This document shows, one piece after another, positions 2,859 through 24,644 of a stretch of 24,724 nucleotides of DNA; within the stretch, counting starts at the first letter, position 1, and each line of letters opens with the position of its first letter. The DNA comes from a virus (taxonomy: Duplodnaviria > Caudoviricetes), in IMG/VR virus record IMGVR_UViG_3300037307_000012, positions 1 through 24,724 of that record. The stretch is one strand, 5' to 3'. The position numbers and the translations under genes were made by a program. Below the pieces are notes generated by a model. That model had not been told where the DNA came from. It did no database searches and saw only the letters and a list, made by a program, of their open reading frames with translations.

Positions 2859-3442
2859 CACGCGACCTCGCTCCGGGCCTGCTTGACGAGGCCGAGGATC
2901 TGATCGAGTAGCTCGGGGAGAACGGTGGAGCGCGCAGCCGAGACGCTCTGCTCGCTCGCGAGAAGGCAGGCCGGAACCCGGTAGAACCAGTGGTGTCCGA
3001 ACTTCGAGACGTTCTTGTTGGCCGCGTAGCGCGTGCAGCGCCGCGAGACGTATTCGGCCACGACCCACGCCTCGCCGCGCGCGTCGAGGGTATCGTGCAG
3101 CGCCGCGAGCGTAGCCGGACCGATGATCCCGTCCTGTGACGCGTGAACGATCTCTTGAAGCGCCATCGAGGCGAATCCCTTCCCCTGATTGACCGCGCAA
3201 TCGAGCATGATGAACGCGAGGCGAGGCGCGAAGTCGGCGACGCGCCCGGCCGTCGGCGCCCAGTATTCGTCGGCGTAGATTTTCGCCGCCTGCGCCTTCG
3301 TCAGATTGCGGATGTCGAGGCTCGGGTGCGCCCGCTTCGAGATCCCGAAGTTGGTCTCGCCGCCCGGGTCGTCCGGGTTGTTCGCATACCCGCCCTCGAT
3401 GTCCGGGCGGAGGATGAAGTCGATGGCCGCCTCGCGGATCAT
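2858..3442 (-). CDS. Endolysin, glycoside hydrolase family 108 (secretion activator-like) with peptidoglycan-binding segment
   Basis: Start moved to ATG 3442 (ATGA overlap with holin). EGGYANNPDDPGGETNFGIS, DCAVNQG, QDGIIGPATL and FGHHWFYRV motifs. Confidence 0.93.
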   Translation of the reverse strand: MIREAAIDFILRPDIEGGYANNPDDPGGETNFGISKRAHPSLDIRNLTKAQAAKIYADEYWAPTAGRVADFAPRLAFIMLDCAVNQGKGFASMALQEIVHASQDGIIGPATLAALHDTLDARGEAWVVAEYVSRRCTRYAANKNVSKFGHHWFYRVPACLLASEQSVSAARSTVLPELLDQILGLVKQARSEVA

Positions 3443-3969
3443 CGGAGCGCCTCCGCCTTCGCGAGGAGTTCGGTCTTGCGGGCGCCGCTCGCGGTGCTGC
3501 CGACGTAGTAGGTCACGCAGGCGATCCAACTCGTCGCGAGCGCGCCGAGCATCGTGTAGAGGACGTCGGCGCCTTCCGCCGGGGCGCCCTTGAGCAGCAG
3601 GAAGAACAGGACGCCGAAGAACCCGAGCGTGACGATGAGCGTCAGGGCGCGCGGGGTCCAGATGTCGCCCGTCGCGACCTCGCGTTGGCGGGCGTTCGCC
3701 CGGTCCTCGTTCGCGAGCCGGTCGATGTCGACGCCGAGCGCCGCCATGTCCTTCTGGAACTGGATGCTCGCCTGCTTGAGGGCGATCAACTGGTCGGGGC
3801 TCGCCGTCTTGACCGCTCGCGCGATCTCGTCCTCGGAGACGTCGGTCTGCCCCTCGCCGAGGATCGTGTCCACGATGACCTTGGTCGCCATCCCGGCCAA
3901 CGGAGTCCCGAAGGCGGAAGCGAGCGCGGGCGCTATCGTCTTGACGAGGTCTTTCCAATCAACGTCCAC
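3439..3969 (-). CDS. Holin (3TM/GTA-holin-like)
   Basis: WKDLVKTIAPALASAFGTPLAGMA N-terminus, EDRANARQRE, two C-terminal hydrophobic helices ending YYVGSTASGARK; adjacent to the endolysin. Confidence 0.85.
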   Translation of the reverse strand: MDVDWKDLVKTIAPALASAFGTPLAGMATKVIVDTILGEGQTDVSEDEIARAVKTASPDQLIALKQASIQFQKDMAALGVDIDRLANEDRANARQREVATGDIWTPRALTLIVTLGFFGVLFFLLLKGAPAEGADVLYTMLGALATSWIACVTYYVGSTASGARKTELLAKAEALR

Positions 3970-10268: not shown

Positions 10269-10579
10269 CAGTACGGCTCCGCGTAGCCGTTGAGCAGGAG
10301 CCAGTCGGACAGGTTCGGGCCGCCGACGATCTGAACCTCGGCGATCCAGCGCCCGTACTTGTCGCCCTTGCTCGTGCTGATCGTCACGTCCGGCGAGCCA
10401 GCGAACTCCTCGGCCATCCGTCTCTTTAGTTCCTTGCCGAGATCGGTCGACATCTCCGGCGCATCGACGCGCGCGAGCCGAACGCGGACGCGGTGCGTGA
10501 TGCGGAACCCGAGGTCAACGTCGAGGTCGAGCGTGTCGCCGTTAACTACCTTCGCCACCTTCGCGTGATACGTCCACAT
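10268..10579 (-). CDS. Thermonuclease (SNase-like) family protein
   Basis: ATG 10579 (TAATG overlap); VVNGDTLDLDVDLGF, RVRLARVDAPE, DKYGRWIAEV, LLLNGYA. First Asp of DGDT is Asn. Confidence 0.88.
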   Translation of the reverse strand: MWTYHAKVAKVVNGDTLDLDVDLGFRITHRVRVRLARVDAPEMSTDLGKELKRRMAEEFAGSPDVTISTSKGDKYGRWIAEVQIVGGPNLSDWLLLNGYAEPY

Positions 10580-11085
10580 TACGCCGGACCCCACTCGTTG
10601 CCGGTCACGCCGGCTCCGCCGACGGTCACGGAGTTGATCTTGCGGAGATCGACGGGAATGGTCGTGGCGGCGAGCCGCGCCATGATCTCGTCAGCGATCT
10701 GGCCGACGCTCGGGCCGGACGAGCCGGAGGTCGCGATGGCCTGCGCCTGGACCGGGACGGTGTACTGGACGGCGACGTTGAAGTTGCCGAGCGTCTGAAC
10801 GACGGGCACGCCGCCGCCCTCCACGAACAGGTTGCCCGTGATGATGAGCGTGTGGTTGCTCTCCATCGGGCGCACGCGCCAGCCGTTGAGCAAGAACAGG
10901 TAGGGCGGAATTGACAGCCCGCCGCCGAGGTCGTCCCCGCCCACCTGACGGAACGCCGGCAGCCACCGACCGTTGTTGGTGTCCGCGTCCAGCCAGTCGC
11001 ACCATCTCGACCACAGCTCCGCCGCTGAGACGGAACTGGAGTCGAGGACGATGCGCTTGGTCGGCCCGTCGAAGGTGATGGGCAC
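10579..11085 (-). CDS. Hypothetical 168-aa putative virion protein
   Basis: AAGGAGG RBS, GTG start; ITFDGPTKRIVL..ELWSRWCDW..FLLNGWRVRP..ITGNLFVEGG. Confidence 0.8.
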   Translation of the reverse strand: MPITFDGPTKRIVLDSSSVSAAELWSRWCDWLDADTNNGRWLPAFRQVGGDDLGGGLSIPPYLFLLNGWRVRPMESNHTLIITGNLFVEGGGVPVVQTLGNFNVAVQYTVPVQAQAIATSGSSGPSVGQIADEIMARLAATTIPVDLRKINSVTVGGAGVTGNEWGPA

Positions 11086-11094
11086 GTCGCCTCC

Positions 11095-12489
11095 TTACGC
11101 GGTGTAGGCGCGGTCCTGCTCGGCCACCAGCGAGATCGTGATGCCCTTGGCACGGGTGATTGTTCCCGTCGCGACCACCGGCTTCGCCACGCCCTTGTTG
11201 CCGGCCACGACCACGATGGGCGCGTCCTCCGCGTCGGAGCCGGCCCCGCGCTGCACGTTGCCGTCGTAGTCGTAGGTGAAACTGATCTGCCCGGACGTGA
11301 TGGCCCCGGCAATCGGGCTGCCGTCCTTGTCATTGACGGTAATCGCCGTCGCAGTGCCGTAGTCGTCGCCAGAGTTGTCGCCAGCATCGTCGTTGGCAAA
11401 GTACATGCGGTAGTAGCCCGTCGAGCCACTGGACAGGAACGAGTTAAACACCAGCGAGCCGGCCGCCGAGTAGGGGTAGGTGCGCTGAACACTGTTTTGG
11501 TCCAGGAACACGACCCGGTTGAGGTCGTTGGCTTGGATGTTCTCGATAAACACGCCCTGCGTGGTGTACAGCGTGTCACCGACGAAGTAGCAGAGCTGGC
11601 TCTCGGTCTTGCCGTTGACCGTGCCGCCGCCCTCGTCGATGTCCGCGTCCTGCCGCAGGAGGTACTGGATCTTGGTGTAGATCTGCTCCAGCGTCGCGTT
11701 GTTGCCGTCGATGATCTTGCGGAATGGGTAGCTGCCCGCGCCGATGGTCTTGTTCTGGTCAGTGCCGTAGTAGGTCACGTCGATCCCCGAGTACGGCGCA
11801 CCAGCCATTGAACCGTCAGCGGCTTGGATCTTCAGATCACTGCCGACTGCCACAGGCAGCGACACCTTGAACGCGCCCGTGCCAGTGGCACCAACGTCCG
11901 TCAGGTTAGCATCGTCGTAGGTGTAGTTATACTCACGGCAGAAGATCTTGAAGTAGGTCCGGTTGTCGAAGTCGCCGTTTGCGGCGTCACCGTAGACCTG
12001 AATGCCTTGGTTCGGGCTGTCGGTGAACGTGAAGTTGGCCGCCGCCCCGCCGCTCGCCTTCTGGTAGTAGAACTGCGCGCCAGCCGGGAACCCAGACGCA
12101 AGAGCGACGATGCCGACGTACTGGCGGTTGAGCGCGCCTGCCGCGCTGTACTCAGACCAGCCGCCGTCGCGGAGCATCTGTCGCGTGGTGTCGTTAGCCG
12201 GTTTCCAGCCGTTGTAACTACCGCCATCCGTGCCAAATTGAAACTGGCCCGAAAGTGCGTCGATAGCGTACATCCCAAACGGGTATTTGTTGTATGACGC
12301 CAACTCCCATAGCTTAATCAGCTTTGAGTACAGCGCTTGCAGGGTGACGCCGTCTTTGGCAACCAGGTCGCCATAGGCCGCCAGGGAAATCGTTTTTGCC
12401 GACGTATCGATCCACAGATTGCCGTCAACACCGAGATTGCCGGACGTTGTAGAAACAACCAACTGATCGGGGTCTGTGCACTTAGCCAT
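11095..12489 (-). CDS. Hypothetical 464-aa putative virion structural protein
   Basis: AAAGGA RBS; Gly/Thr/Asp/Tyr-rich beta-type composition; MAKCTDPD start, EQDRAYTA end. Confidence 0.85.
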
Positions 12490-13063
12490 TGTGATGTCCT
12501 TTTACAGAATTAGATTTGGTTCTGTTTTCATGCTGCGTGACGATGCGCAAATTCCATGGGACGTGTAGCCCGCTTACCGTCTTTCCTCGTAGCGGGACAA
12601 TGTGGTCAACCTCATGCGGAATGCCCGTTTCCTTGGTTGCGCTTGCGGCCCGTGCGTAAATTTCGAGAATCTGCTTATTGAACGCTTTACCAAGCGCCCT
12701 GCTCGGAAGCAGCATTTCTCGTTCCCGCGCTCTTCGCTTGTAAGCATCGGGGTTTGCCCTATACCGGCGTCTATCGGCCTCTCTGATTTCGCCCCGCCGT
12801 TCCTCAAGCGCAGCTTTTACCCTCTCAGGATTTTGTTGCTTCCATGCCGTCGCACGCTCAACAGCCTTGCGTTTCCGCTCATCGCGCTTTTCTGCGTATG
12901 TAGGGTCAGCATCAAGTCGCTTAAGGTACGCCCTGCTTGCAGCGTTACGACGTGCAGTTACGGCAGGATCGTTTTTCGCCAGGTAACGGCGATTGCGTTC
13001 ACGACTCATAGCCTTCTGGCGCTCCCATTCTTCTGGCGTGCAATCTACCTTGCGTTTGCCCAT
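12482..13063 (-). CDS. Free-standing HNH endonuclease (probable homing endonuclease)
   Basis: [36 protein letters not shown]; basic helical N-terminus; visibly more AT-rich than its flanks. Confidence 0.9.
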
Positions 13064-13065
13064 GG

Positions 13066-15348
13066 TTAGCTCACAAAGTTTCGGTCAGCGACCTGCGCGA
13101 TAGGCAGAGACGCATTGGTTGAGCCGAGCAGATAACCTCTTACGGTGTACGGGACGTAGCCCTGCTTGTAGACGCAGACATCAACGTAGTCGCTGGCCGC
13201 GTAGCTGTAGCTGTACCCGTAGGACGTGCTGCCGTGCGCGTCCACGTTGACCCGTTCGGTCGTCGTGCCGGCGGTCAGAATCACGATGTCCGATCCAGAC
13301 ACCAGCCCAGTGAGGGTCAGCGTCACGCTGTTGTTGACGACCACCGTCGCGCCCGCCGTGCGGATGCTCGGGGTCGAGCCGCCGCCTGAGATGTTGATCG
13401 TCACCGACCCGCTGGCGATGTTGACGTAGATCGCCTCGTTACCGGTGCTGCCGTTGCTGCTGGCGTAGCTGGTGAACGTGTTACCCGTAAAAGTGATCGT
13501 GCTCGCGCTGCCGGACACCTCGATGGCGTGGCCGGTGCCGCCACTGGTGAAGGCGCAATTCGAGATATTGTCCATGTCCGCTAGCGTGGCCGACGTGATC
13601 TTGCAGTTCTTGAACTTGCTGCCGGTGATCGTCGCGCTGTTCTGCGTAATGGTCAGACAGTCCGTGAACGCCATCTGGTCGTAAGTGATGGCCCGAAGGT
13701 TGAGCTGGCCCGCGTTGATGACCTGCGCGCCTGCTGTGTAGACCGTGGCGCTGGTGCTCATGCTGGCGTGCCAGTCCCATTTGAACTTGCTCTTGGACGA
13801 GAACACCGCATTGCGAACGTCGATGGTGTCCGACGCGCCGGGATAGAAGGTCAGCCCGCACACGTTGTCCACAGAGTTGTAGAACACTTGCTTGTCGGTA
13901 ACGCTGCGTTGCTGCGGGAACTCGATCGCCGCATTGGACAGATCGAGGTAGACCGCGTTGGTGCCGCCATCCCCAAGCTGGATCGGCTGGAGCACAAGCA
14001 TCTGCGTCGCGCCTTGCTGCAAGACGCTCATCCGCTCCTTACCCTGCGCAGTGACCTTCACAATGTCAGGCACCTTCACCGGATAGCTAGCATTGCCGCC
14101 TGCGACTGTCGTCGTGTCTAACGCCCACAACGAACCAAACTGCATGACCGGCGCGGCGAAGGTGCCAGAGACAGCAAGGCCAAAGGCAGAGACCGACGCC
14201 GCATTGAACGTGCCTGTCGTGTCAATGGCCGTTGCGCCGTCGTTGATGATAAGCGGCAAGTGCTGCGCTGTGTCCCATTTTGTGCCTGAGCCATGCACCG
14301 CCCAGAATTTGAAATTGCCTGCCGACGACGCCATGCCGAATGCGACGCCTTTGCTCGTCGCTTTGCCGATGTTGTCGAGGTTCTGGTAGACCTTCGGCGT
14401 TGACGGCTTGGTGTGGATCAGGACGTTCTTGCCAGTGACATTAGGCTTGTTGCCGGACGACAGCACGGTACATGCACCAGCGTAGGTGCCGTCTGTCGTC
14501 ACCCCGGTAAGCTGCCCCATCGAGTGATAACTGTTTAGGCCAACGTCTGCCGCCGCGGCTGTCGTGCCGTTGCTAAGGGTGCGGCTGTTCAGCGTCGTGC
14601 CGAAGTTGGTGGTCACGGTAGCAGCCCACGCAGTATTACCGTTGTAGGCGGTCGTGCCGTGTACCGGATCGATGTAGAGCGAGGCATCCGCCACGCAGTA
14701 CGCCGGGATCACCGACGCACCGCCTGACGGGGGAGAAATGCCGACAGTAGCGATGACGCCAGCCGCCGTGCCGGATTTGTTGCCGTACACGTCAGAGCCG
14801 ACTGCGCCAGCGGTGCGCTTGAAGCCCCATGACCAACCGTGCGAATGCGCGGACCCGTCCATCGCATCCTCCCAGGTACACGGCCCTTCGAGGACGCCTG
14901 GGACGACTGCACCAGACTCGGAGTTGATGAAGATAACGAGGCTGTTGTTAACCGTCGTGGTCAGCACAGGCATCGCGACACGCGCCGCACTGTTGCTTGC
15001 TGTTCGGTAGCCCGTGCCTGCGCCGCCAGTGCCGTTGAACGGCGTTGAAGTGTTCACGTCGCCAATGGCGATCAGGTGGGCGTTGGCCGTCTCCGCAATC
15101 GTGTAGGTGAACGTCGGGTCACTCTCACTCGCCCCGGCGATCTTGTACAAGACGCCGACGTTGCAAGTGTTCGACACTGAGAAGAGCTGTGTCCAGCCGC
15201 TCGATGACCACGCCTGTGTGGTGCCCGTGTCTGTCGTACAGATCGCCAGCAGCAAATCGTTCTGCTGGTACTGCGGCAGCTTGCACGAGATCGTTGTGGC
15301 CGTCGTCGTGCTGTGCAGGTTGAACTGCCAGTCGCGAATGAACGGCAT
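13066..15348 (-). CDS. 760-aa putative fibre/spike-like protein with beta-helix-like segment
   Basis: Thr/Gly/Ser/Ala-rich; N-terminal [21 protein letters not shown] domain; repeats FTDC/FKNC/ISNCAF/FTGNTF; C-terminal [13 protein letters not shown]...YKQGY...QVADRNF. ATG 15348 has GAGG and a TGATG overlap. Confidence 0.82.
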
Positions 15349-15446
15349 CAGCACATCCTCACGATGACAGCATCAGGCCACCAAGGAACAGGTGGCAGCG
15401 GGGGCGGGGGTAGCACCCACAGATACGCAAGCATGACGGCAGTCAC
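15348..15446 (-). CDS. Possible 32-aa hydrophobic Pro-rich peptide
   Basis: GTG start overlapping the upstream TGA, GGAGGAAAGG upstream; MTAVMLAYLWVLPPPPLPPVPWWPDAVIVRMC. Confidence 0.4.
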   Translation of the reverse strand: MTAVMLAYLWVLPPPPLPPVPWWPDAVIVRMC

Positions 15447-15601
15447 TGTTGCCTTTCCTCCTCCAAGAGCGACCGATTGAACAGGAACCAGAGCGCCATG
15501 ATCTGCGCCCGGTCGTCGGTGTCGGTCAACGGACTCTGCGCGACAGCGTGCGTGAGGCGCATCAGCAGCGCCCGCAGGAATTCCAGTTGCTCCTCTGTCA
15601 C
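15443..15601 (-). CDS. Hypothetical 52-aa protein
   Basis: GTGA overlap, GGAG upstream; MTEEQLEFLRALLMRL... Confidence 0.55.
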   Translation of the reverse strand: MTEEQLEFLRALLMRLTHAVAQSPLTDTDDRAQIMALWFLFNRSLLEEERQQ

Positions 15602-15816
15602 GGCAGCGACTCCAGCTCGCATTCGATCTCGTTCCACAAGGCGTGCGGCATCTGGATTTCGTTGTAGAGCGCGGCACGGAAGTTCACGCGGCACTGCCGC
15701 ACCTCGGACAGTAGAAGGCGCAGCCGTTTGATCGTTTGCGCTTGCCGCACCAACGCCTGCCCCTTCGTCTCCTCAAAGACGCGCTCGATGGGGTCGTCCA
15801 TCGGCCCGAGCGTCAC
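15598..15816 (-). CDS. Hypothetical ~70-aa protein
   Basis: GTGA overlap at 15816 (or ATG 15801); MDDPIERVFEETKGQAL...WNEIECELESLP. Confidence 0.55.
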   Translation of the reverse strand: MTLGPMDDPIERVFEETKGQALVRQAQTIKRLRLLLSEVRQCRVNFRAALYNEIQMPHALWNEIECELESLP

Positions 15817-16081: not shown

Positions 16082-16783
16082 TCAGTGAATGGAAGTGGAC
16101 GAGGCGGATGGCGGCGGCTCCTTTACGGCGGGGCACTCGTCGCCGAGCGCCTCGCGCATCTTCTCGTCCATACACGCCCTGCGGACGGCGGCGGCCGGGC
16201 GCCCCATCGAGGTCAGCAACTTCACCGCCTTGATCGTCTGGCAGTGGTCGTCTACGAGGGTGAACCCGAGCATGGCGCCGAGCCCGGACAGGCCGAGCCC
16301 GCCGGACACCGAGCCGAGGCAGACGTCGTCGCCGCCGGTCGCGAGGCCGGGCGCGTAGACGTCGGGTACGACGTCGCCGAGGTCAGCGGCACGGGGCGCC
16401 GCGATGTTCACGCTCGTCGTCTGGTTGCCGTTGATGGCGTGGGCCGTCGCCTGCCCACCCGTGGCGGTAGCGTTCCCTCCAGTCGCCGACGATGCCGACC
16501 GAGAACGGGACGTCGAAAGAGACTTGGCCGATGAGGTCGCTGCCGCGCTCGACCTCGCTGACGGGGAAGACGTCAGCGTGTTCGTCACGCTCACGCCGCC
16601 TGACCCACCATTGCCGGAACCGCTTGAGCATGTTGACCCCTGACACGTTTCGACCTTCTCGCCATCCACGAACGTCGTCCCGGCTTGCGCCGCAACGACC
16701 GCGAACATCAGCACCCAGAATACGACGAGCGCCCAGAAGACGGCGCGGGACCAACGGATGGGCTCCGGGATGTGCCGCCTCAA
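16082..16783 (-). CDS. Exported protein with signal peptide, Ser/Gly/Ala linker and Cys-containing C-terminal domain
   Basis: TTG start overlapping the portal stop; basic N-terminus, hydrophobic core, AQA|G site; DDVCLGSVSGG...DDHCQTIKAVKLLTSMG..AAVRRACMD. Confidence 0.75.
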   Translation of the reverse strand: MRRHIPEPIRWSRAVFWALVVFWVLMFAVVAAQAGTTFVDGEKVETCQGSTCSSGSGNGGSGGVSVTNTLTSSPSARSSAAATSSAKSLSTSRSRSASSATGGNATATGGQATAHAINGNQTTSVNIAAPRAADLGDVVPDVYAPGLATGGDDVCLGSVSGGLGLSGLGAMLGFTLVDDHCQTIKAVKLLTSMGRPAAAVRRACMDEKMREALGDECPAVKEPPPSASSTSIH

Positions 16784-18684
16784 TTCAGCGTCCTCCCGTC
16801 GGTCGCCCCGTCAGCGGGGCCGTCGGTCTGGACCGCCCGCTTGATGTTGCCGTCGGCGTCGCGCTCGATCTCGGTGACGGTCTTCCTCGGCGGGATCTCG
16901 ACCGTCGCGTTAAGCGTCACCGCCGGGGTCGCCTCGACCGTAACGGAGGGGAGGGGAACCTCGTTGGTGACGTTGACCACCGGCGGTGACTGCTCGGGGA
17001 CGTTCACGACCACGGTCGGCGCCGGCGGCGGCTCGAACTGTGCCGTGACGTTGATGATCGGGGCCGACGCGGCGAAGGACGCGAAGCGGTCGGCCTCGGG
17101 GTCGTCGGCGTGGGCGAAGCCCATGACCTCGGCGGCGAACAGGGCGCGCTCGAACATGGTCCGGAACTCCGGGGATGACGAGTTCCGCATCAGGACCGCC
17201 ATGCGTTCGAGGAGGTCTTCCGGATCCTTCGCGAGGCGGATGACGCGGAGGATCGCGGCCTCCTCGATCAGCGGCGGGAGGCCGGAGAGGGTGTTGTCGA
17301 CAAGGCGCTCGACGGCCTCCTGGCCCTGAGTGAACCTCGGGCCGGTCTGCGCCGCGAAGCCTGCCTTGGTGGCCGAGGCGCCCGCGTCCCGCGCGTTCTG
17401 GTCCGACTCCGTGCCGCCCCCCTTGGGCGGCGCCTTCTGGCCGTCCTGGGCCGCGTTGGGGTCTTGGCCGGCGTAGGGCGCCAACTGCGGCGGCGGCTCG
17501 GGGATCTCGAAGTCGCCCTCGCGGAAGTCGTAGCGGTCCATCAGGTAGTCCTCGGTGAGCTTGAGGATGCCTGCCTGGACGAGCTTCGAGTCGCGGTCGG
17601 CGCGGTCGATCTCCAGCCCGGTCTCGTCCTCCATGACGAACTCGGGGGCGGTCCCGCTGAAGCGGTTGAGCGCCCACAGGTTGTTGACGATCTTCTGGAA
17701 GGTCGCCCTGACGAGGCGGATGTCGGCGTTGCGCTTGTCCTCGCGGACGTCGTTGTGCACCTTCGCCGCCGCGTAGGAGCCGGACTGCCCGACGTCCGAG
17801 GTTAGGGTCTGGCCGAGGATGACGCGCTGATAGCGGCGGATGATGGCGCCCTCGAACGAGGAGAACTGATCCCCCTTCGAGCCGGCGTCGAGGGCGCTTA
17901 CCTCGTCCTCGGCGTCAACGGCGATCCCGGCCCCGCCGGACGCGGCGGCGAGCGCCTTCGACATCGCGTTGATGTCGCCCTTCGTCCTGGCGATCAGGAA
18001 TGGCGAGCCGAACCGCTCCAGCCACTTCGCCCAGAACTTCCAGCCGGCTTGGCGGAACTTCCACGGCCAGTAGAGCCGGGAGAGGAGCGCCTCGCCGTAG
18101 GGGCTGAGGTAGGTGCCCTGCCGGACGGTCAGAAGGAACTTCAGCGGATCGGCCTCCTCGCCGTTCGGCTCCTTCTGCGAATACCAGACGAGCTTGCCGT
18201 CGGGGCGCGGAGAGAACCACCAGAACGGGATCTCCACGACCGCGCCGAGGCCGAGCCCGCCCTCGCGCCACGCATAAACGACCTCGGAGACGGAGTAGCC
18301 GTAGCAGACGGCGGCGAAGCCCGAGCGGACGATCTTCTCGACGTGCGGGCGGAGTTCGTCGGCGATGAACTTCGAGGCCGCGTCGGTCCCGGGTTCGAGG
18401 CGCCACGGGACGCCGATGATCGCCTCGCGCCGGGTATCGAGGGCTGCGAAGATTTCATCGTCGTATTCGAGGGCGCGGAGGTGTTCGCGGCGGATCCCGA
18501 GGTTCTTCAAGACCTCGTCCGGGTCCGGGAACTGCGTGAGCATCGTCAACCACTGGTCGAACGCGGTCTCGACGGTCAGCGCGGCGCGGCCCCGGCGGTC
18601 CGCCTGATCGCGCGGGACGGGCTGGATCGCCATCGCCTCAGTGACCGGGGCCGGGAGGTGGGTCTTGCGGGTGACTCGTGCCAT
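16780..18684 (-). CDS. Portal protein (Mu gp29/DUF935-like) with Pro/Val-rich C-terminal extension
   Basis: DDEIFAALDTRREA, YGYSVSEVVY, PYGEALLSRLYWPW, KWLERFGSPFL, ILGQTLTSD..GSYAAAKVHNDVREDK..AD. Confidence 0.95.
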   Translation of the reverse strand: MARVTRKTHLPAPVTEAMAIQPVPRDQADRRGRAALTVETAFDQWLTMLTQFPDPDEVLKNLGIRREHLRALEYDDEIFAALDTRREAIIGVPWRLEPGTDAASKFIADELRPHVEKIVRSGFAAVCYGYSVSEVVYAWREGGLGLGAVVEIPFWWFSPRPDGKLVWYSQKEPNGEEADPLKFLLTVRQGTYLSPYGEALLSRLYWPWKFRQAGWKFWAKWLERFGSPFLIARTKGDINAMSKALAAASGGAGIAVDAEDEVSALDAGSKGDQFSSFEGAIIRRYQRVILGQTLTSDVGQSGSYAAAKVHNDVREDKRNADIRLVRATFQKIVNNLWALNRFSGTAPEFVMEDETGLEIDRADRDSKLVQAGILKLTEDYLMDRYDFREGDFEIPEPPPQLAPYAGQDPNAAQDGQKAPPKGGGTESDQNARDAGASATKAGFAAQTGPRFTQGQEAVERLVDNTLSGLPPLIEEAAILRVIRLAKDPEDLLERMAVLMRNSSSPEFRTMFERALFAAEVMGFAHADDPEADRFASFAASAPIINVTAQFEPPPAPTVVVNVPEQSPPVVNVTNEVPLPSVTVEATPAVTLNATVEIPPRKTVTEIERDADGNIKRAVQTDGPADGATDGRTLN

Positions 18685-18736
18685 CGTTCGCGCCTTCTGG
18701 TCGATGGCGCGATAAGAGCGGAGTCTCTCCTCCCCG

Positions 18737-18757
18737 GTAATCCTGACGGCCGTCAGT
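18737..18757 (-). promoter_or_regulatory. Putative activator-binding late promoter element (copy A)
   Basis: Minus strand ACTGACGGCCGTCAGGATTAC containing the perfect 14-bp palindrome CTGACGGCCGTCAG (18743-18756), upstream of the portal gene. Confidence 0.6.
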
Positions 18758-19149
18758 TACCGGCTATCGAACAGATCGAACAGGTTCAGTTGCTCCGCCA
18801 CGCCGCGCGTCTTCTGGACGATGCGGTAGATGTGGCGCTCGGAGAGGCGGGCGACGTAGGTGAACTCGCGGGCGATCTCTGCCGGCTTCTTCCCCTCCTT
18901 GAGCATCCGGAGGATCCGGTTGTTGCGGTCTTCGAGCGCCTCGGCCTCGTTCCTCGGGACGTAGAGCGTGTCACCGCCGGCGTAGCGGACGAGCTTGTCG
19001 GCGGCCGGGTAGCCGATGATGAGCGCGAGCCGCTCGTAGCCCTCCCCCTCGTACTGCGCCGGGACGCGAAGGTCGGCCCCGCCCATGACGCGGCACAGTT
19101 CCTTGGTGGCGTCCGGGCCGATAGCGAACGTCAAGACCTCGAAGCTCAT
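18757..19149 (-). CDS. Mor/C-family transcription activator
   Basis: ATG 19149 (ATGA overlap with TerL); IGYPAADKLVRYAGGDTLYVPR, RNNRIL, HTH AEIAREF...LSERHIYRIV; ends QLNLFDLFDSR. Confidence 0.88.
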   Translation of the reverse strand: MSFEVLTFAIGPDATKELCRVMGGADLRVPAQYEGEGYERLALIIGYPAADKLVRYAGGDTLYVPRNEAEALEDRNNRILRMLKEGKKPAEIAREFTYVARLSERHIYRIVQKTRGVAEQLNLFDLFDSR

Positions 19150-20411
19150 GAGAATACCCTCCCGCCGAAGACAACAGGCTCGCGGCCCGAGGCGCGGCCT
19201 ATCCCGTGCCACGCGATAGCGAGGCTCATCACGCAGTCGTCGTGTTCTCCTGGGGGAGCCGAGTAGCGTAGCGCGCCGCTCGGGAGTCGCTCCTGATCGA
19301 AGGCCAGGAGTTCTCTTGTGAGGTGTTCGTTGTCCGGGATCCGGATCTCGCTGCGCTCGAACGCCATCGCGAGCCCTTCGATGATCGAGGCCTTGGACGC
19401 GGCCGTGGTCTGGAAGGCGCGGACCGGGATCCCGTCGGCCTTGAGTTGCTCGATCAACGGACCGCCCATCGAGTTCGACTCGGCAATGACGGGCGCCCTC
19501 GGGAAGCGCGCGGAGATCGCCCGGAGCCGGGCGAGTTGGATCGAGTATTCGATGTCCGTGAAGCGGTCGAGACCTATGACGACCTTCTCGCGGGCGTCGA
19601 GGACCGTGAACACGGTGAAGTCGTTGTGCCGGCCCCAATCGACCCCGACGACGTAGGCGCGGCCGTCCTGAATGTCGCGGATCGAGCCGAGCGGCCGGTT
19701 CAGGGAGTTGTCGATGGCGTCGGTGACTCTGTGGAAAACCCCGCCGCCGTCTGTGAGGAACTCGGCGAGGTACTCCTGCCGGAAGACCCGCTCCGGGAGG
19801 GTCTGACGCGCCTCCTCGACCTCCTCGGGGGCGATAAACGGGTTGCAGGACGTCGGCATCTGCCACGAGCGGTAGCCGCTCCGGCCTTTGGCGCCGCGCA
19901 TCCATAGCTCGTGGAAGAAGTTCCGCCCTTTCGGGGTCGAGAAGAACCACGCATCGCCCCGGTAGTCTGTCAGCGTCGGCCGGATCGCGTCCTCCCACGC
20001 CTTCTTAAGGTGCCGCGCCATCGCGGCCTCGTCCACGATCACGCGCTTGTACTTGCGGGAGCGGCCGGCGTCCTCGTCCTCCAGGGTCCAGAACTCGATG
20101 GAGCCGCCTGTGACGAGCGCGATCCGCTTCGAGGTCTCGGACTTCTCCACGATGAGCGGGGCGAGGCGGCGCTTTGTCTCGCGCCAAGCGTCATCGAGGA
20201 CGCGGTAGGTCGGGGCGAACCACCCGACGGGGTAGCCCTGGATGGCGCCCTCCGAGAGGTCGTGAGAGGCGGACGCGCCGGCCGCGAGCATGACGCCCAT
20301 GACGGACTTGCCCGAGCGCCGGCCGATGCAGACGGAGTTGTAGCGGGCGCGGCCTTCCCAGATCGAGGCCTGCGCCTGATGGAGCGCCGGGAGGACTATG
20401 TCCCGCCTCAC
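19146..20411 (-). CDS. Terminase large subunit (Terminase_6-like), intact
   Basis: Walker A GRRSGKS, Walker B VIVDEAA, STPKGRNFF, RQEYLAEF, nuclease VGVDWGRHNDFT and HDDCVMSLAIA. Confidence 0.95.
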   Translation of the reverse strand: MRRDIVLPALHQAQASIWEGRARYNSVCIGRRSGKSVMGVMLAAGASASHDLSEGAIQGYPVGWFAPTYRVLDDAWRETKRRLAPLIVEKSETSKRIALVTGGSIEFWTLEDEDAGRSRKYKRVIVDEAAMARHLKKAWEDAIRPTLTDYRGDAWFFSTPKGRNFFHELWMRGAKGRSGYRSWQMPTSCNPFIAPEEVEEARQTLPERVFRQEYLAEFLTDGGGVFHRVTDAIDNSLNRPLGSIRDIQDGRAYVVGVDWGRHNDFTVFTVLDAREKVVIGLDRFTDIEYSIQLARLRAISARFPRAPVIAESNSMGGPLIEQLKADGIPVRAFQTTAASKASIIEGLAMAFERSEIRIPDNEHLTRELLAFDQERLPSGALRYSAPPGEHDDCVMSLAIAWHGIGRASGREPVVFGGRVFS

Positions 20412-20872
20412 CCGTAGCTCTCAATGATCCAGCCGGCGAACTCGCCGAAGCGCCAGAACTCGAACCGACCGTCGAGCCCGAGATGCCCCTCGGCGATGGG
20501 GCGCTGCACGCCGGAGAGGGAGAGTTCCTTCTGGACGATCTCGTCGGCCGGGACGCCGGTCGAGACCTTCCCGGCGATGGTCAGGCGGTGCATGACGGTC
20601 CCGAGGTAGCCTTTCGGGACGGCGAGCTTGTCGAAGATGATGATGCAGCCGCCCGGGCGGGTCCGCTCCCGGAGCCGGTCGATGAGCGGCTTGCGGTAGG
20701 GGACCGGGACGAACATCAGGACGAGGAACAGGATCGCGATGTCGAACTCGCCGAAGGGGTAGGTGACGGCGTCCGCGATCTCGATCTTGCCCGGGCCGTC
20801 GTACTGCGCCGCCATTTCGGCGGACTTCTCGATGGGGACGAGGAGCGCGTCGCGGGATTCGAGGATCGGCGC
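20408..20872 (-). pseudogene. 5'-truncated class I SAM-dependent methyltransferase (CmoA-like)
   Basis: Frame reads APILESRDALLVPIEKSAEMAAQY..ADAV..FDIAILFLVLMFVP..RPGGCIIIFDK..FGEFAGWII; the N-terminal DxGxxxG SAM motif is absent and the frame hits a TGA a few codons upstream. Confidence 0.75.
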
Positions 20873-21887
20873 AGTGGAACATCATGACCGGCGGGACGGC
20901 GCGGCCGAGGCGCTCGACGGACTGCGAATAGTCGCCGGTCAGGACGAAGTCGTCGGGGAAGGCGCAGATGCGCTTGAGTTCGGAGACGGTGAACTTCCGC
21001 CTTTCGAGCGGGTGAACGACGCTCGCCGCATCGAGGACTCCGGCGGTCTGGGTAATCGTCGGGCAGGGAAGGTAGAGCGCCGGCTTGACGAGGTTGAAAT
21101 ACTTCTCGGACTGCTCGCCGGGCTGGATCCGGTCCCACTCGGCGCCGATGGCGTAGCGCGAGATGTCGGTCTCCGCGCCCCCTCCCCGGCCGTCGGCGAT
21201 CTCCGGGATCGCGTCCCGGACCGAGTAGCGGTAGGGGAGCGGCTTCGGGTGGACGGGGTCGAGGCCGAGGTCGTCGCGGACGCCGACGAAGATCGTCCGC
21301 TGCCGCGCCTGCGGGACGCCGAGCCATTGGGCGTCGAGGACTTTGCAGGCGACGCGGTAGCCGCACGCCTTCAACTCGCCGAGGATGTCGAGGAAGTAGC
21401 CCTTGGCGACGCCCTTGACGAGGCCGGCGACGTTCTCGGCGACGAAGGTCCGGGGCCGGATCTCGCGCAGGAGCCGGGAGAACTCGAAGAACAGATCATC
21501 GGTCCGCTGCGCCTTGTCGCTGTACTTCTTGACCTTCCCCCAGCCGGCCGCGCGCTTCCCGGCCGTCGAGAAGGAGGCGCACGGCGGCGAGCCGTCGAGG
21601 AGGTCGAGTTCGCCGGCCTTAAGGTCGATGGCATCGAGGATCTCGGCGCCGGTGACTTGGCGGATGTCGCGGCCGTCGAGGATCGTGTAGGGCGCGGCGT
21701 TGGCGCGGTAGGAGTCCCGGGCGGCGTCGATGAACTCGGACGCCCACAGGACGCGGAACCCGGCCATGCGGTAGCCGAGCGACGAGCCGCCGGTCCCCGA
21801 GAAGGTGCTGATGACGTTGAACCCGTTCCAGGGGAGCGCGCGGATCTCCTCCATCGAGGGGACGCGGTAGGGCGGCTTTTCGGTCAT
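20421..21887 (-). CDS. C5-cytosine DNA methyltransferase; native sequence ends at ~20874, then an out-of-frame tail
   Basis: ATG 21887; motifs I (FSGTGG), IV (GSPPCASFS), VI (ENVAGL), VIII (QARQRTIFVG), IX (RKFTVSELKRI), X (LGRAVPP); the last ~150 codons are an Arg-rich alternative frame of the next gene. Confidence 0.88.
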   Translation of the reverse strand: MTEKPPYRVPSMEEIRALPWNGFNVISTFSGTGGSSLGYRMAGFRVLWASEFIDAARDSYRANAAPYTILDGRDIRQVTGAEILDAIDLKAGELDLLDGSPPCASFSTAGKRAAGWGKVKKYSDKAQRTDDLFFEFSRLLREIRPRTFVAENVAGLVKGVAKGYFLDILGELKACGYRVACKVLDAQWLGVPQARQRTIFVGVRDDLGLDPVHPKPLPYRYSVRDAIPEIADGRGGGAETDISRYAIGAEWDRIQPGEQSEKYFNLVKPALYLPCPTITQTAGVLDAASVVHPLERRKFTVSELKRICAFPDDFVLTGDYSQSVERLGRAVPPVMMFHCADPRIPRRAPRPHREVRRNGGAVRRPGQDRDRGRRHLPLRRVRHRDPVPRPDVRPGPLPQAAHRPAPGADPPGRLHHHLRQARRPERLPRDRHAPPDHRREGLDRRPGRRDRPEGTLPLRRAAPHRRGASRARRSVRVLALRRVRRLDH

Positions 21888-21898
21888 CCGGTCCCGCT

Positions 21899-22456
21899 CT
21901 AGCGGTAGCCGCACTTCGGGCATTCGTAGTCGGTTTCGAGGCCTTCGTTGACCTCCTTGAAGTCGTCCGGAGGCGGCGGATCGGTCCCGAGGGCGAGGAG
22001 CCGGTCGAGTTCGCCGACCCCGAAGCCGAGGAGCGAGAGGTCGAAGTCCTCCTCCTTGAGGCCGGCGAGTTCGAGCGAGAGGAGTTCCTCGTCCCAGCCG
22101 GCGTTGAGCGCGAGCTTGTTGTCGGCGATGACGTAGGCGGAGAACTGCGCGTCGGTCCAGCCGGAGACGTCGAGGACGGGAGCGGTCCGGTCTGGGAACG
22201 GCTCCGCCCCCCGGGCGCGGCCGGGAGCCGGGTAGACCCGACGGCCGGCGTCGTACAGGCGACGGATGGCGGCGAGCGTCCCGTGACCCTTCGCGATGAC
22301 GCCGGAGCGGACGACGATGGCGCCGACCATCCCGAACTCCTCGATGCTCGCGGCGATCTGCGCGACCTGTTCGTCGCTGTGGGTCCGGGAGTTCCGGGCG
22401 TAGGGGATGAGCGTGTCGATGGCGACCGGGCCGAAGCTATTCGGCGTTGATGACAT
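21899..22456 (-). CDS. ParB/Srx N-terminal domain protein with C-terminal CxxC
   Basis: LIPYARNSRTHSDEQVAQIAASIEEFG, IAKGHG, AYVIADNKLALNAGWDEELL..EL, ECPKCGYR; GAGGAG RBS. Confidence 0.88.
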   Translation of the reverse strand: MSSTPNSFGPVAIDTLIPYARNSRTHSDEQVAQIAASIEEFGMVGAIVVRSGVIAKGHGTLAAIRRLYDAGRRVYPAPGRARGAEPFPDRTAPVLDVSGWTDAQFSAYVIADNKLALNAGWDEELLSLELAGLKEEDFDLSLLGFGVGELDRLLALGTDPPPPDDFKEVNEGLETDYECPKCGYR

Positions 22457-23012
22457 TGCCGTACTCCTCGCGAACGATGTTGATGGTCAGGAGCCCACCC
22501 TGCGCCGCCGGGGCGTTCGGGGTTCCCTCGTCAAAGCCCCACGCCTTCCGCTCGCCGGCCTGCTGGATGGCGGTCATCTCGGCGGTGATCTTGGCGAGCT
22601 TGGCGCGGTTGAAGGCGGCGCGGACGTTGGCGGCGCGGTCGGCGAGCGCCTCCTGCCGGAGGAGCCGGACGATCTTCCACTCCTCGCGATGGCGCTCGAT
22701 GACCTTCGCGCGTTGGTCGATGGCCGCTTCGACGGCGTCGGCCAGGAACTTTTTCGGCCCAGGCAAAGTAATGGCGCCGGAAACTTTGCCGCCAAGTTCG
22801 CCCTCCTCCTCGCCGTCCCGCGCTCGCATCTGCGCGAGTTCGGCGACGCGCTGGAGGGTTCCGACCTTCGTCCAGCCTTCGGCGCGGATCCTGTTCCGGA
22901 GCGCCTGCGGGGTGCAGCCGAACCGGCCGGCGATGGCCGGCGCGGACGCGGTCGGGTCCGCTTCCCATAGCGCCCGGGCTTCGGCCCATTGGTCGGGGGT
23001 AAGGCGCGGCAT
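22437..23012 (-). CDS. HTH protein, probable terminase small subunit #2
   Basis: ATG 23012; LTPDQWAEARALWEAD..IAGRFGCTPQALRNRIRAEGWTK, then helical region IERHREEW...QQAGERKAWGFD; upstream of the intact TerL. Confidence 0.7.
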   Translation of the reverse strand: MPRLTPDQWAEARALWEADPTASAPAIAGRFGCTPQALRNRIRAEGWTKVGTLQRVAELAQMRARDGEEEGELGGKVSGAITLPGPKKFLADAVEAAIDQRAKVIERHREEWKIVRLLRQEALADRAANVRAAFNRAKLAKITAEMTAIQQAGERKAWGFDEGTPNAPAAQGGLLTINIVREEYGNVINAE

Positions 23013-23014
23013 GG

Positions 23015-23470
23015 TCAGCGGTCGAGGTAGAAGGCGCCGAGGAGGGCGGCGTCGGCGCGGCCGACGTCCTTCTTGCGGCCGAAGTAGAACGTGGCGAGGT
23101 GCGGCCACCGCTCCTGGGCGACGGTCCGCGCGACCTCCTTGTCCTCGCCCATGGCCCAGAAGTCGAGCGTCGAGCCGGTCACGAACCGCATGCGCCCGGC
23201 CTGGCGGTTCTTGTACTCGACCAGGCCGGCCAGGCGCGCCAGGATCTCGTCCCACACGTCGTCGACGTAGCGCGAGCTCGGCGCGAACCAGCCGGCCGGG
23301 TAGCCGGCGGGATCGAGCAGGTTCTTCGGTCCGGTCAGCAGGCGGTGCAGGCCGAATTTCGTTTTCCCCCAGCGGCGGCCGCAGGTGAGCACGTTGTACC
23401 GGCCGGCATTCTCTGCCACGAGCTTCTGGCCCGGGTGCAGGATCGGCAGCCGGACGCGGATCTCAGCCAC
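23015..23470 (-). pseudogene. Chimeric ORF: N-terminal terminase large subunit fragment fused to a RuvC-like resolvase C-terminus
   Basis: Residues 1-~115 align with the intact TerL (LHPGQ, CGRRWGKT, GYPAGWFAP, VTGSTLDFW) but stop before Walker B; the tail ARTVAQERWP...RKKDVGRADAALLGAFY resembles phage RuvC-like C-termini. Confidence 0.75.
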
Positions 23471-23867
23471 TGGAGCCCTCGTAGACGTGCTCGACGATGA
23501 TGCGGGTGGTGGCGTCGACCCGGTCGATGAAGTCGCCGGACGACTTGCCGAGCAGCTCGGAGGCCTTGAGGCGGTCGGCCCACTTTGGCGGATTGCCGTC
23601 GCCGTCGGCGCCCTCTCCGCGCAGGACGGCGGACCAGAAGCGGCGCCGTTCCTCAGCGGTGGCGATGCGCCGATCGTGGTCGGGTTTCGCCAGCGCCTTG
23701 ATGGTTTCCCGAATCCTAGCGTCTCCTAGCAGCCGCGCGCCTTCTGGGTCGGGCCGTGCGTACCCTGCCGCCTTTGCGGCCCGCAGCGCATTGCCGCCGT
23801 TCGCGAGGTACTCCTCGACGAACCGTTGGCGCTTTGGCGTCAGGCCGCCGCCATGGGTACGCGGCAC
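23463..23867 (-). CDS. Terminase small subunit #1 (Terminase_2-like)
   Basis: GTG 23867; LTPKRQRFVEEYLANGGNALRAAKAAGY, ARLL, IATAEERRRFWSAVLRGE, DRLKASELLGK..GDFID. Confidence 0.92.
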   Translation of the reverse strand: MPRTHGGGLTPKRQRFVEEYLANGGNALRAAKAAGYARPDPEGARLLGDARIRETIKALAKPDHDRRIATAEERRRFWSAVLRGEGADGDGNPPKWADRLKASELLGKSSGDFIDRVDATTRIIVEHVYEGSSG

Positions 23868-23868
23868 A

Positions 23869-24003
23869 TCACACCCCCCCCTCGTCGGTGCCGGGCTCGT
23901 AGGCGAACAGGGCGCAGCGTGCCGAGGCGGCATCGCGACGGCGGACGCACCACAGGTACCCGGTGATGAGGCGGATCGCGTAGCGGCAGGAGAGGCAGGT
24001 CAT
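23869..24003 (-). CDS. 44-aa Cys-rich protein (not in the ORF track)
   Basis: ATGA overlap; MTCLSCRYAIRLITGYLWCVRRRDAASARCALFAYEPGTDEGGV, with CxxC...C...C. Confidence 0.6.
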   Translation of the reverse strand: MTCLSCRYAIRLITGYLWCVRRRDAASARCALFAYEPGTDEGGV

Positions 24004-24644
24004 GCGGCGTCCTCGTCCGACGGCGCGGCGAGACGGATCACATTCGCGGCCGGCCGCAACCCGACTGCCGGCGCTGACGACCCTCCGGCGATTACCCGCT
24101 TTGCAGCCGACTGGTCGCCGATGAGTGCGGGAGCCGGGATGGGTTTCCCGGTGCGTGCGTTGTGCGCCTCGCTGATGCCGATCAGCACGCGGGGGTAATC
24201 GCGGCTGGCGAGGCGACTACGGTAGCCGCGGTAGCGGGCCTCGAACTCCCGAGCGACGAACGGCCATTCGTCCTCGGTGCGTGAGCCCAGGCCGATCCAG
24301 CCGCCCATGTCCTGCACGACGACGTGGATCAGCGGGTCGTCGAACGCCACGGACTGGTAAATGCCGACGTGGCGGATGGCGCGGTCGACCTTTGCCCAAG
24401 CCCGCAGGGCGGTGTCTTGGGTCGACCCCTGCAGCATGCGGGTGACGTCAGCGATGCGTGGCATGTACTGGCCGGCATCGGGGTTGCGCATGTGGCGGTT
24501 GATGGCGTCCCGCACGGCATCGAGGTCGTACTCCTCCAGGCCCTGCCAGTACATGCCGATCAGGCCGTCGCTGATCTCGCGGCCGTAGTACTCGCCGAGC
24601 ATCGCGAGCATGGTCACGAACGCCGGCTTGTCCTGGGGCGTCAT
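24000..24644 (-). CDS. Phage replication-region protein (DUF6475-like; helicase loader/inhibitor-like N-terminus)
   Basis: YWQGLEEYDL..VRDAINRHMRNPDAGQYMPRIAD, AWAKV..AIRHVG.Y.SVAFDDPLIHVVVQDMGGW, EWPFVAREFEARYR. Confidence 0.8.
   Translation of the reverse strand: MTPQDKPAFVTMLAMLGEYYGREISDGLIGMYWQGLEEYDLDAVRDAINRHMRNPDAGQYMPRIADVTRMLQGSTQDTALRAWAKVDRAIRHVGIYQSVAFDDPLIHVVVQDMGGWIGLGSRTEDEWPFVAREFEARYRGYRSRLASRDYPRVLIGISEAHNARTGKPIPAPALIGDQSAAKRVIAGGSSAPAVGLRPAANVIRLAAPSDEDAA

Follow-up and report, generated by a model that had tools for sequence, protein, structure and literature searches.

A TerL–RuvC fusion frame as a probable crossover scar between two phage genomes

The mosaicism of lambdoid phages is reportedly explained by illegitimate recombination, a model associated with Juhala and Hendrix and with the HK97/HK022 comparisons. 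That mosaic genomes of temperate phages contain joints inside genes, with gene fragments left over, is well established, and the case described here is an event of that known type. PMC3945230 and PMC3029335 both treat it as a matter of debate whether mosaic joints form at short homologies or at randomly placed sites. According to PMC3029335, most mosaic boundaries are without shared sequence, and genes 67/68 of mycobacteriophage Island3, compared with Brujita, contain a recent joint at a shared stretch of ~50–60 bp with related gene ends. Red-beta, as presented in PMC3945230, uses 23–27 bp of exact pairing for efficient exchange and tolerates one mismatch in five, and the same source places exchanges by Rad52-like phage recombinases (Red-beta, RecT, Erf) in homologous regions of ~100 bp or more. 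For the terminase side of the present joint, PMC5727402 identifies R139 as the trans-arginine finger of P74-26 TerL. Most phage joints are too old or have no known partner; at the joint described here, identity reaches 99–100% to one parent and is complete at the protein level to the other, and the switch has been mapped to 5 nt.

The joint lies in a linear virus record of 24,724 bases that was analysed as a whole (the window). Our results favor a reading in which a single ORF, composed of 112 codons of TerL from a phage A and 39 codons of RuvC from a phage B, is probably the scar, likely without activity, left by a single recent crossover for which a predicted look-alike of 23 nt in the two parents served as guide. 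Both parts of the ORF have been traced to their parents, they meet within a 5-nt interval, and the joint occurs in several samples. On the minus strand, the window reads DUF6475, TerS, the 151-aa ORF, a second TerS-like gene, a ParB-like gene, a C5 methylase and a fragment of a SAM methyltransferase, and further along an intact TerL of 421 aa, Mor and a Mu-type portal, followed by head, lysis and tail genes (Table 1). Contig L001, which overlaps the window with 2 differences in 3,978 nt, extends it upstream with repressor, Cro-like, endonuclease and replication initiator genes, and contig L180 (8 mismatches in 10,112 nt of overlap) supplies the downstream part, where the tape measure is completed to 1347 aa and two large ORFs match phrog_6128. 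This element, which carries two TerS genes, is a tailed phage or prophage of temperate type. It combines Mu-like features, namely the portal and Mor (Pfam), with an early region of repressor, Cro, replication initiator and DUF6475; the hybrid sequence obtained ends upstream at the repressor gene, and an integrase (phrog_1) is present in the A relative G002. Promoter and terminator scans remained at chance level.

Table 1 Features at and around the joint (window coordinates).
Feature	Position	Strand	Evidence
DUF6475 gene, end of the phage A replication module	24000..24644	-	Pfam DUF6475, E 2e-36
Intact TerS-A, own TerL gone	23463..23858	-	Pfam Terminase_2, E 1e-13; 94% aa to L002
TerL-RuvC fusion ORF, 151 aa	23015..23470	-	
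TerL-A 5' remnant, codons 1-112; LHPGQ motif and Walker A retained	23135..23470	-	
Crossover interval, GTCGC on the - strand	23130..23134	-	Switch vs L002 and P0002
Imperfect look-alike of the parents, MGEDKEVA (TerL-A) vs IGKDKDVA (RuvC-B)	23130..23152	-	Modelled
RuvC-B 3' remnant	23015..23129	-	Fusion residues 113-151 = end of P0002
TerS-like gene of phage B	22437..23012	-	phrog_1206 TerS, E 0.007
Second deletion scar, out of frame, methylase genes	20878..20880	-	Mcat8 comparison
Intact TerL-B, 421 aa	19146..20411	-	phrog_2, E 8e-44 over aa 9-408
Mor-like late activator of B	18757..19146	-	Pfam Mor, E 2e-12; phrog_836, E 3e-22
Portal of B, first of the head/tail genes	16780..18684	-	Pfam Portal_Mu, E 4e-67; 54% to L090

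Several other features of the element were recorded. The portal-to-head-morphogenesis block at 10579–15354 of the window has a lower GC content (0.54–0.62 over 12001–15800) and contains an endonuclease VII-like gene as well as ORFs of 762, 464 and 168 aa that have no PHROG match at E 1e-4. The 1200 positions of phrog_6128 are spanned by two neighboring ORFs of 634 and 602 aa (L180 67–3783); because a homologue in G003 begins at the same motif as the L180 ORF, this split is probably natural. The replication initiator (L001 2456–3256) is mosaic relative to that of L002, at 50% over residues 1–86 and 95% over residues 160–266. A holin-like gene (window 3439–3969) is 61% identical to that of G002, and the head genes of A and B belong to different families; a holin common to A and B at this level is consistent with one gene pool.

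The preliminary description had read the first part of the ORF as a diverged homologue of the intact TerL in the window. This homology holds (residues 6–116 align at 39%, E 4e-23), but the source is a separate 402-aa family: the closest longer homologue, the 402-aa terminase P0004, is 93% identical over 76% of the fusion query, and residues 1–112 are 96% identical to an intact copy in viral contig L002. Within the first 341 nt of the ORF, L002 differs at 21 positions (13 synonymous and 5 non-synonymous codons), and within the next 77 nt it differs at 47 and reads on as GRRYARVVVDEAAH into Walker B. The TerL half also matches phrog_2 (TerL) at aa 11–107 with E 9e-4. Its LHPGQ and GRRWGKT sequences align with 11 TerL rows as the Q motif and Walker A, with H12, Q15, G31, R32, R33, G35 and K36 invariant in this alignment. 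In agreement with the earlier observation that similarity ends just before Walker B, the fusion switches at residue 115/116; Walker B (hhhhDE) is found in 17 of the 17 closest TerL-A proteins examined and is absent from the fusion, as are the ISTP motif and the C-terminal nuclease domain. TerL-A family proteins are 369–529 aa long, most with PF17289. Full-length homologues of the fusion were sought, and the only full-length match of similar length was the fusion protein itself; among 50 longer homologues, none aligns past fusion residue 121. Two other origins were considered and rejected: a duplication of the window's own TerL, on account of 39% identity to it versus 96% to TerL-A, and a conserved TerL–RuvC fusion family, on account of the 50 longer homologues. 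The gene following TerL-A in L173 has no PHROG match.

For the remainder of the ORF, a RuvC-like tail had been proposed, and such similarity is present: fusion aa 88–147 match the Holliday junction resolvase family phrog_1770 (E 0.003), and the last 44 aa alone do so with E 0.002. The 39 terminal residues match the C-terminus of P0002 without a single difference; this protein of 159 aa is encoded on a 532-nt contig, its residues 1–155 match phrog_1770 (E 6e-25), and it also matches plant MOC1 structures (tobacco MOC1 6kvn, E 1e-11); in Pfam, there was no match for either the 151-aa fusion or P0002. The DK..AR segment expected on this side takes the form GKDKDVAR in RuvC-B, and KDxxR is near invariant in 133 relatives; this motif and RKKDxGRADA, the C-terminal motifs of phrog_1770 resolvases, are both present in the fusion tail. 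Among the resolvase relatives, K119 and R123 are each found in 132 of 133 and D/E148 in 126 of 126, and the first catalytic Asp (position 8) and Glu66 are found in 131 of 131 and 133 of 133, respectively. The fusion contains nothing of P0002 residues 1–120 and consequently lacks the first Asp, Glu66 and the N-terminal sheet. With Walker B, the nuclease and the first two resolvase catalytic residues missing, the fusion is likely inert and, judging by the family motifs, would have neither terminase nor resolvase activity. P0002 itself has His at residue 8, where the relatives have the catalytic Asp, which points either to an error in sequencing or to a resolvase without activity.

The gene order predicted by the preliminary description was found in parents or relatives of both sides, supporting its proposal of a module exchange. 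On the A side, DUF6475 of the window is 96% identical in amino acids to that of L002 versus 45% to that of the B relatives L008/L090, and a comparison of TerS-A with TerS-B gave no significant similarity. The A relative G002 (28,429 nt), which is temperate, encodes a Bet-like SSAP (E 3e-87), a RecE-like exonuclease and an integrase. On the B side, the B-like phage L090 has the order Cro, DUF6475, RuvC, TerS, ParB, TerL, Mor, portal, with identities of 55% for RuvC (to P0002), 55% for TerL and 54% for the portal. RuvC thus lies directly ahead of TerS in L090, which is the resolvase-before-TerS order that had been anticipated, and the TerS-B homologue that comes after it matches phrog_1206 with E 3e-5. 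From this gene order, B likewise had an early region of its own, with RuvC as the last gene ahead of TerS, and it is this region that was replaced in the hybrid. The further claim that an A early region was joined to the morphogenesis region of B agrees with the map, in which B's whole packaging set sits behind A's early genes and an orphan TerS-A remains. In the slot between ParB and TerL, the window has methylases and L090 has 7-deazaguanine-type candidates (L090 11614–15325, with genes that, from their motifs, presumably resemble the synthesis genes QueC, FolE, QueD and QueE).

DNA of parent B was not found in three collections. With P0002 as query, the best relatives reached 55%, both among the best 80 of 225 confirmed loci in viral contigs and among the best 80 of 563 loci in metagenome contigs (18 of 64 parts); a TerS-B query returned L001 and two distant loci only, and a search for the junction pattern returned the L001 contig only. 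The closest other proteins to TerL-B are ~60% identical and include proteins from Burkholderiales MAGs, and a GTDB scan yielded 5 weak loci, the best being a partial TerL-A relative in a Gammaproteobacteria MAG; neither match fixes the host.

The crossover had been placed at a DKEVAR microhomology at ~23126–23143. The switch does occur in this motif, but it maps to a shorter interval, and the match between the parents is imperfect, extends over ~23130–23152 and is modelled. The last base in common with L002 is 23130, giving a switch at 23130/23129, and codon 23135–23137 encodes the A-type Glu where P0002 has Asp; together, these place the switch within 23130–23134 if P0002 represents parent B. 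The peptides that meet here are GEDKEVAR in TerL-A and GKDKDVAR in RuvC-B, and both are conserved motifs. Fusion Arg115 falls at the position where the P74-26 entry 4znj has Ala in place of Arg, a substitution that we take to be R139A. The B DNA was modelled by back-translating P0002, one protein on a 532-nt contig, with B-side codon usage in 20,000 draws; in this modelled DNA, 19 or 20 matches in 23 nt were obtained in 16,469 draws and an exact run of 10 nt in 15,430. As a background, G002 compared with the B side (23,129 nt) has 116 sites with at least 19/23 matches, a density of 0.18 per kb x kb, and 22 sites with at least 20/23. A search for repeats found none at the joint.

Seven sequencing runs contain part of the stretch, of which six (X1–X6) were compared and X7 (share 0.13) was left out; in all of them, the evidence on the joint consists of assembled contigs. 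One contig crosses the joint in each of X1 (21417–23573, depth 8.45, 0 differences), X2 (21417–23989, depth 9.89, 2 differences) and X3 (18000–24269, depth 10.4, 0 differences), as well as in L001, so that spanning sequence is present in three of the six runs. These three runs come from three studies and two years, the samples dating from 2017 and 2020. Over 18000–23989, 7 positions separate X2 from the window, and L001 shares two of these. X4, X5 and X6 contain the A side at depth ~36–200 and essentially no B side, and each departs from the window at 23130 with an intact TerL-A continuation; in these wetland runs, X5 and X6 have one base different over 23130–23308, and X4 has pieces with 0 differences over 23138–23573. 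That intact A is almost identical here argues for a recent event and, with it, for the earlier description of the joint as a fresh scar.

In the crossover that we favor, DNA of A and B would have met in one cell, either by superinfection of a lysogen or by co-induction, and would have annealed at the look-alike, most likely through a Bet-type annealing protein as in A's relative. A joint just upstream of TerS-B would leave TerS, TerL, the Mor activator, portal, head and tail genes all cognate behind A's repressor and replication genes. Such a position might account for the survival of the hybrid, with B's recognition, cutting, packaging and late switch all downstream of it, and TerS-A and the fusion would be passengers awaiting purge. 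The Bet-like protein and RecE-like exonuclease of G002 offer an enzyme. The modelled exact core of 10 nt is shorter than the 23–27 bp of Red-beta, which counts against a Bet-guided exchange, and the event would be rare; recombinase-independent annealing is possible. A further point against the crossover is that the hybrid is seen as contigs that stop upstream at the repressor gene, short of a left arm with recombinase, integrase and att, and with neither a virion nor a circular form.

The same sequence would result from an exchange between phage and prophage or from a deletion across two adjacent prophages. We regard the second route in its full form as conceivable, though tentative: A and B would have been adjacent prophages in the same orientation, a deletion at the look-alike would have removed the late genes of A and the early genes of B, and the hybrid would perhaps be non-excising and spread with its host. 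The temperate nature of A's relative is in line with this scenario, as are the flat depth of 8–10 in three bulk metagenomes with ~0.1% strain variation and the presence in the methylase genes of another deletion, which is out of frame; a decaying resident prophage would account equally well for the even depth and for this second deletion. At the second deletion, the end of the C5 methylase (aa 4–339 of 356 in the comparison with Moraxella phage Mcat8, the match ending at 20880) is joined to the middle of the SAM methyltransferase (aa 65–215 of 216, the match starting at 20878), with ~240 nt missing by our estimate, and this scar is present in X1, X2, X3 and L001. It affects accessory genes only, however, and the late genes of B that were examined show no breaks and are full length, including the tape measure; in addition, a search of GTDB representatives turned up no host genome carrying the joint, which is a weak negative. 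A fork upstream of the joint in X1 (window 23544–23720), with depth 5.1 for window-type TerS-A and 3.4 for a variant that differs at 13 positions, also argues against a static prophage by suggesting a later exchange with an A-type phage. In this run, the depth is 7.2–8.5 on the B side and 4.4 on the window-type A side further out, sums that fit two junction-bearing haplotypes, and the variant allele shares SNPs with the intact-A wetland runs. A similar picture would arise if X1 contained an intact A phage at low depth and the assembler had clipped its branch.

Conversely, the hybrid may be a replicating lineage that arose by annealing over ~23 imperfect nt and in which the TerS-A/TerL-A leftover serves as a homology adapter for swapping A-type early regions onto B packaging and tail genes, a proposal that we consider rather unlikely. 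The leftover stretch of ~730 bp is 92–100% identical to abundant A phages, and, if this proposal were true, the two TerS-A alleles of X1 would be a second swap step caught in progress. Separately, a second DUF6475 allele occurs at 23960–24632 in X2 (46 differences in 322 nt, depth 4.1) and X3 (28 in 377 nt, depth 7.4), indicating a related element in the same samples.

Whichever route produced the joint, it is improbable that the fusion or its open frame has been selected, be it to carry translation to the TerS-B start or to provide a fragment that modulates or blocks TerL-A-type motors. Compatible with such a role, the stop codon lies 2 nt before the TerS-B ATG with no purine-rich ribosome site visible there, Walker A and the arginine-finger position (Arg115) are retained, and the joint persists in samples of 2017 and 2020. 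The position of the stop codon, though, is merely inherited from RuvC-B, Walker B and the remaining ATPase core are absent, and the protein cluster of the fusion has two members that differ only at the start residue, giving no sign of selection. Moreover, 91 of the 116 look-alike sites fall in sense-strand genes on both sides; once the 13 that lie in homologous gene pairs are set aside, 78 are left, and 68 of these are in frame. The open frame of the fusion is therefore what look-alike sites between GC-rich genes usually produce, and it needs no selection.

Very improbable, in our estimation, is that the joint formed without sequence guidance and that the resemblance of the two peptides is a coincidence. 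The match is short and imperfect and was modelled rather than read in B DNA, and unrelated sequence in X4–X6 matches 23115–23149 by chance at the 85% setting, showing that such codon runs recur. Against this, 6 of the 8 residues of the two peptides agree, in register and exactly at the switch, and by our own arithmetic the chance that a random joint lands on a site with at least 19/23 matches is of the order of 1e-6 to 1e-5. An assembly or library chimera, finally, hardly deserves credence and is close to refuted already: support for the joint does come from contigs without raw reads, and X1 and X2, and perhaps X3, which is identical over the stretch, are possible sources of the window, but the same joint is found in three runs, one with its own SNPs, plus L001, there is no fork at the joint in X1, X2 or X3, and the contig pieces overlap by 30 nt, which implies 31-mer assembly, for which a modelled exact core of at most 10 nt is too short to cause a mis-join.

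Compared with known systems, the finding is neither a new enzyme nor a new system. The source family of the N-terminal half is the Terminase_6-type TerL (P74-26, PDB 4zni) and that of the C-terminal half the RuvC/MOC1-like resolvases (phrog_1770, PDB 6kvn), and neither half retains a complete active site. A literature search that missed most subscription papers found no report of a TerL–RuvC fusion joint, a weak negative. The joint contributes one case from nature to the evidence for guidance by homology that is coincidental, very short and imperfect and that lies between unrelated genes, and it illustrates cleanly how temperate phages swap whole genome halves; it might also serve as a template for a systematic search in which in-frame fusions of two unrelated phage proteins mark recent joints. 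The joint of Island3 and Brujita is similar in being recent, in connecting otherwise different sequences at a short shared stretch inside genes, and in that deletion and intermolecular exchange are indistinguishable in both cases; here, by contrast, the stretch is ~23 nt and imperfect, the genes are unrelated (an ATPase and a nuclease) and the joint divides two genome halves. Relaxed recombination resembles our case in that the A family includes a temperate phage encoding a Bet-like annealase and in that the likely setting is an exchange with a co-resident prophage; it differs in that the modelled exact core here is 10 nt without flanking homology. The illegitimate-recombination model of lambdoid mosaicism shares with this locus a joint inside genes, leftover fragments and survival through a kept gene order, whereas the joint described here sits at a non-random position, within a look-alike, and its nearly identical parents can be recovered.
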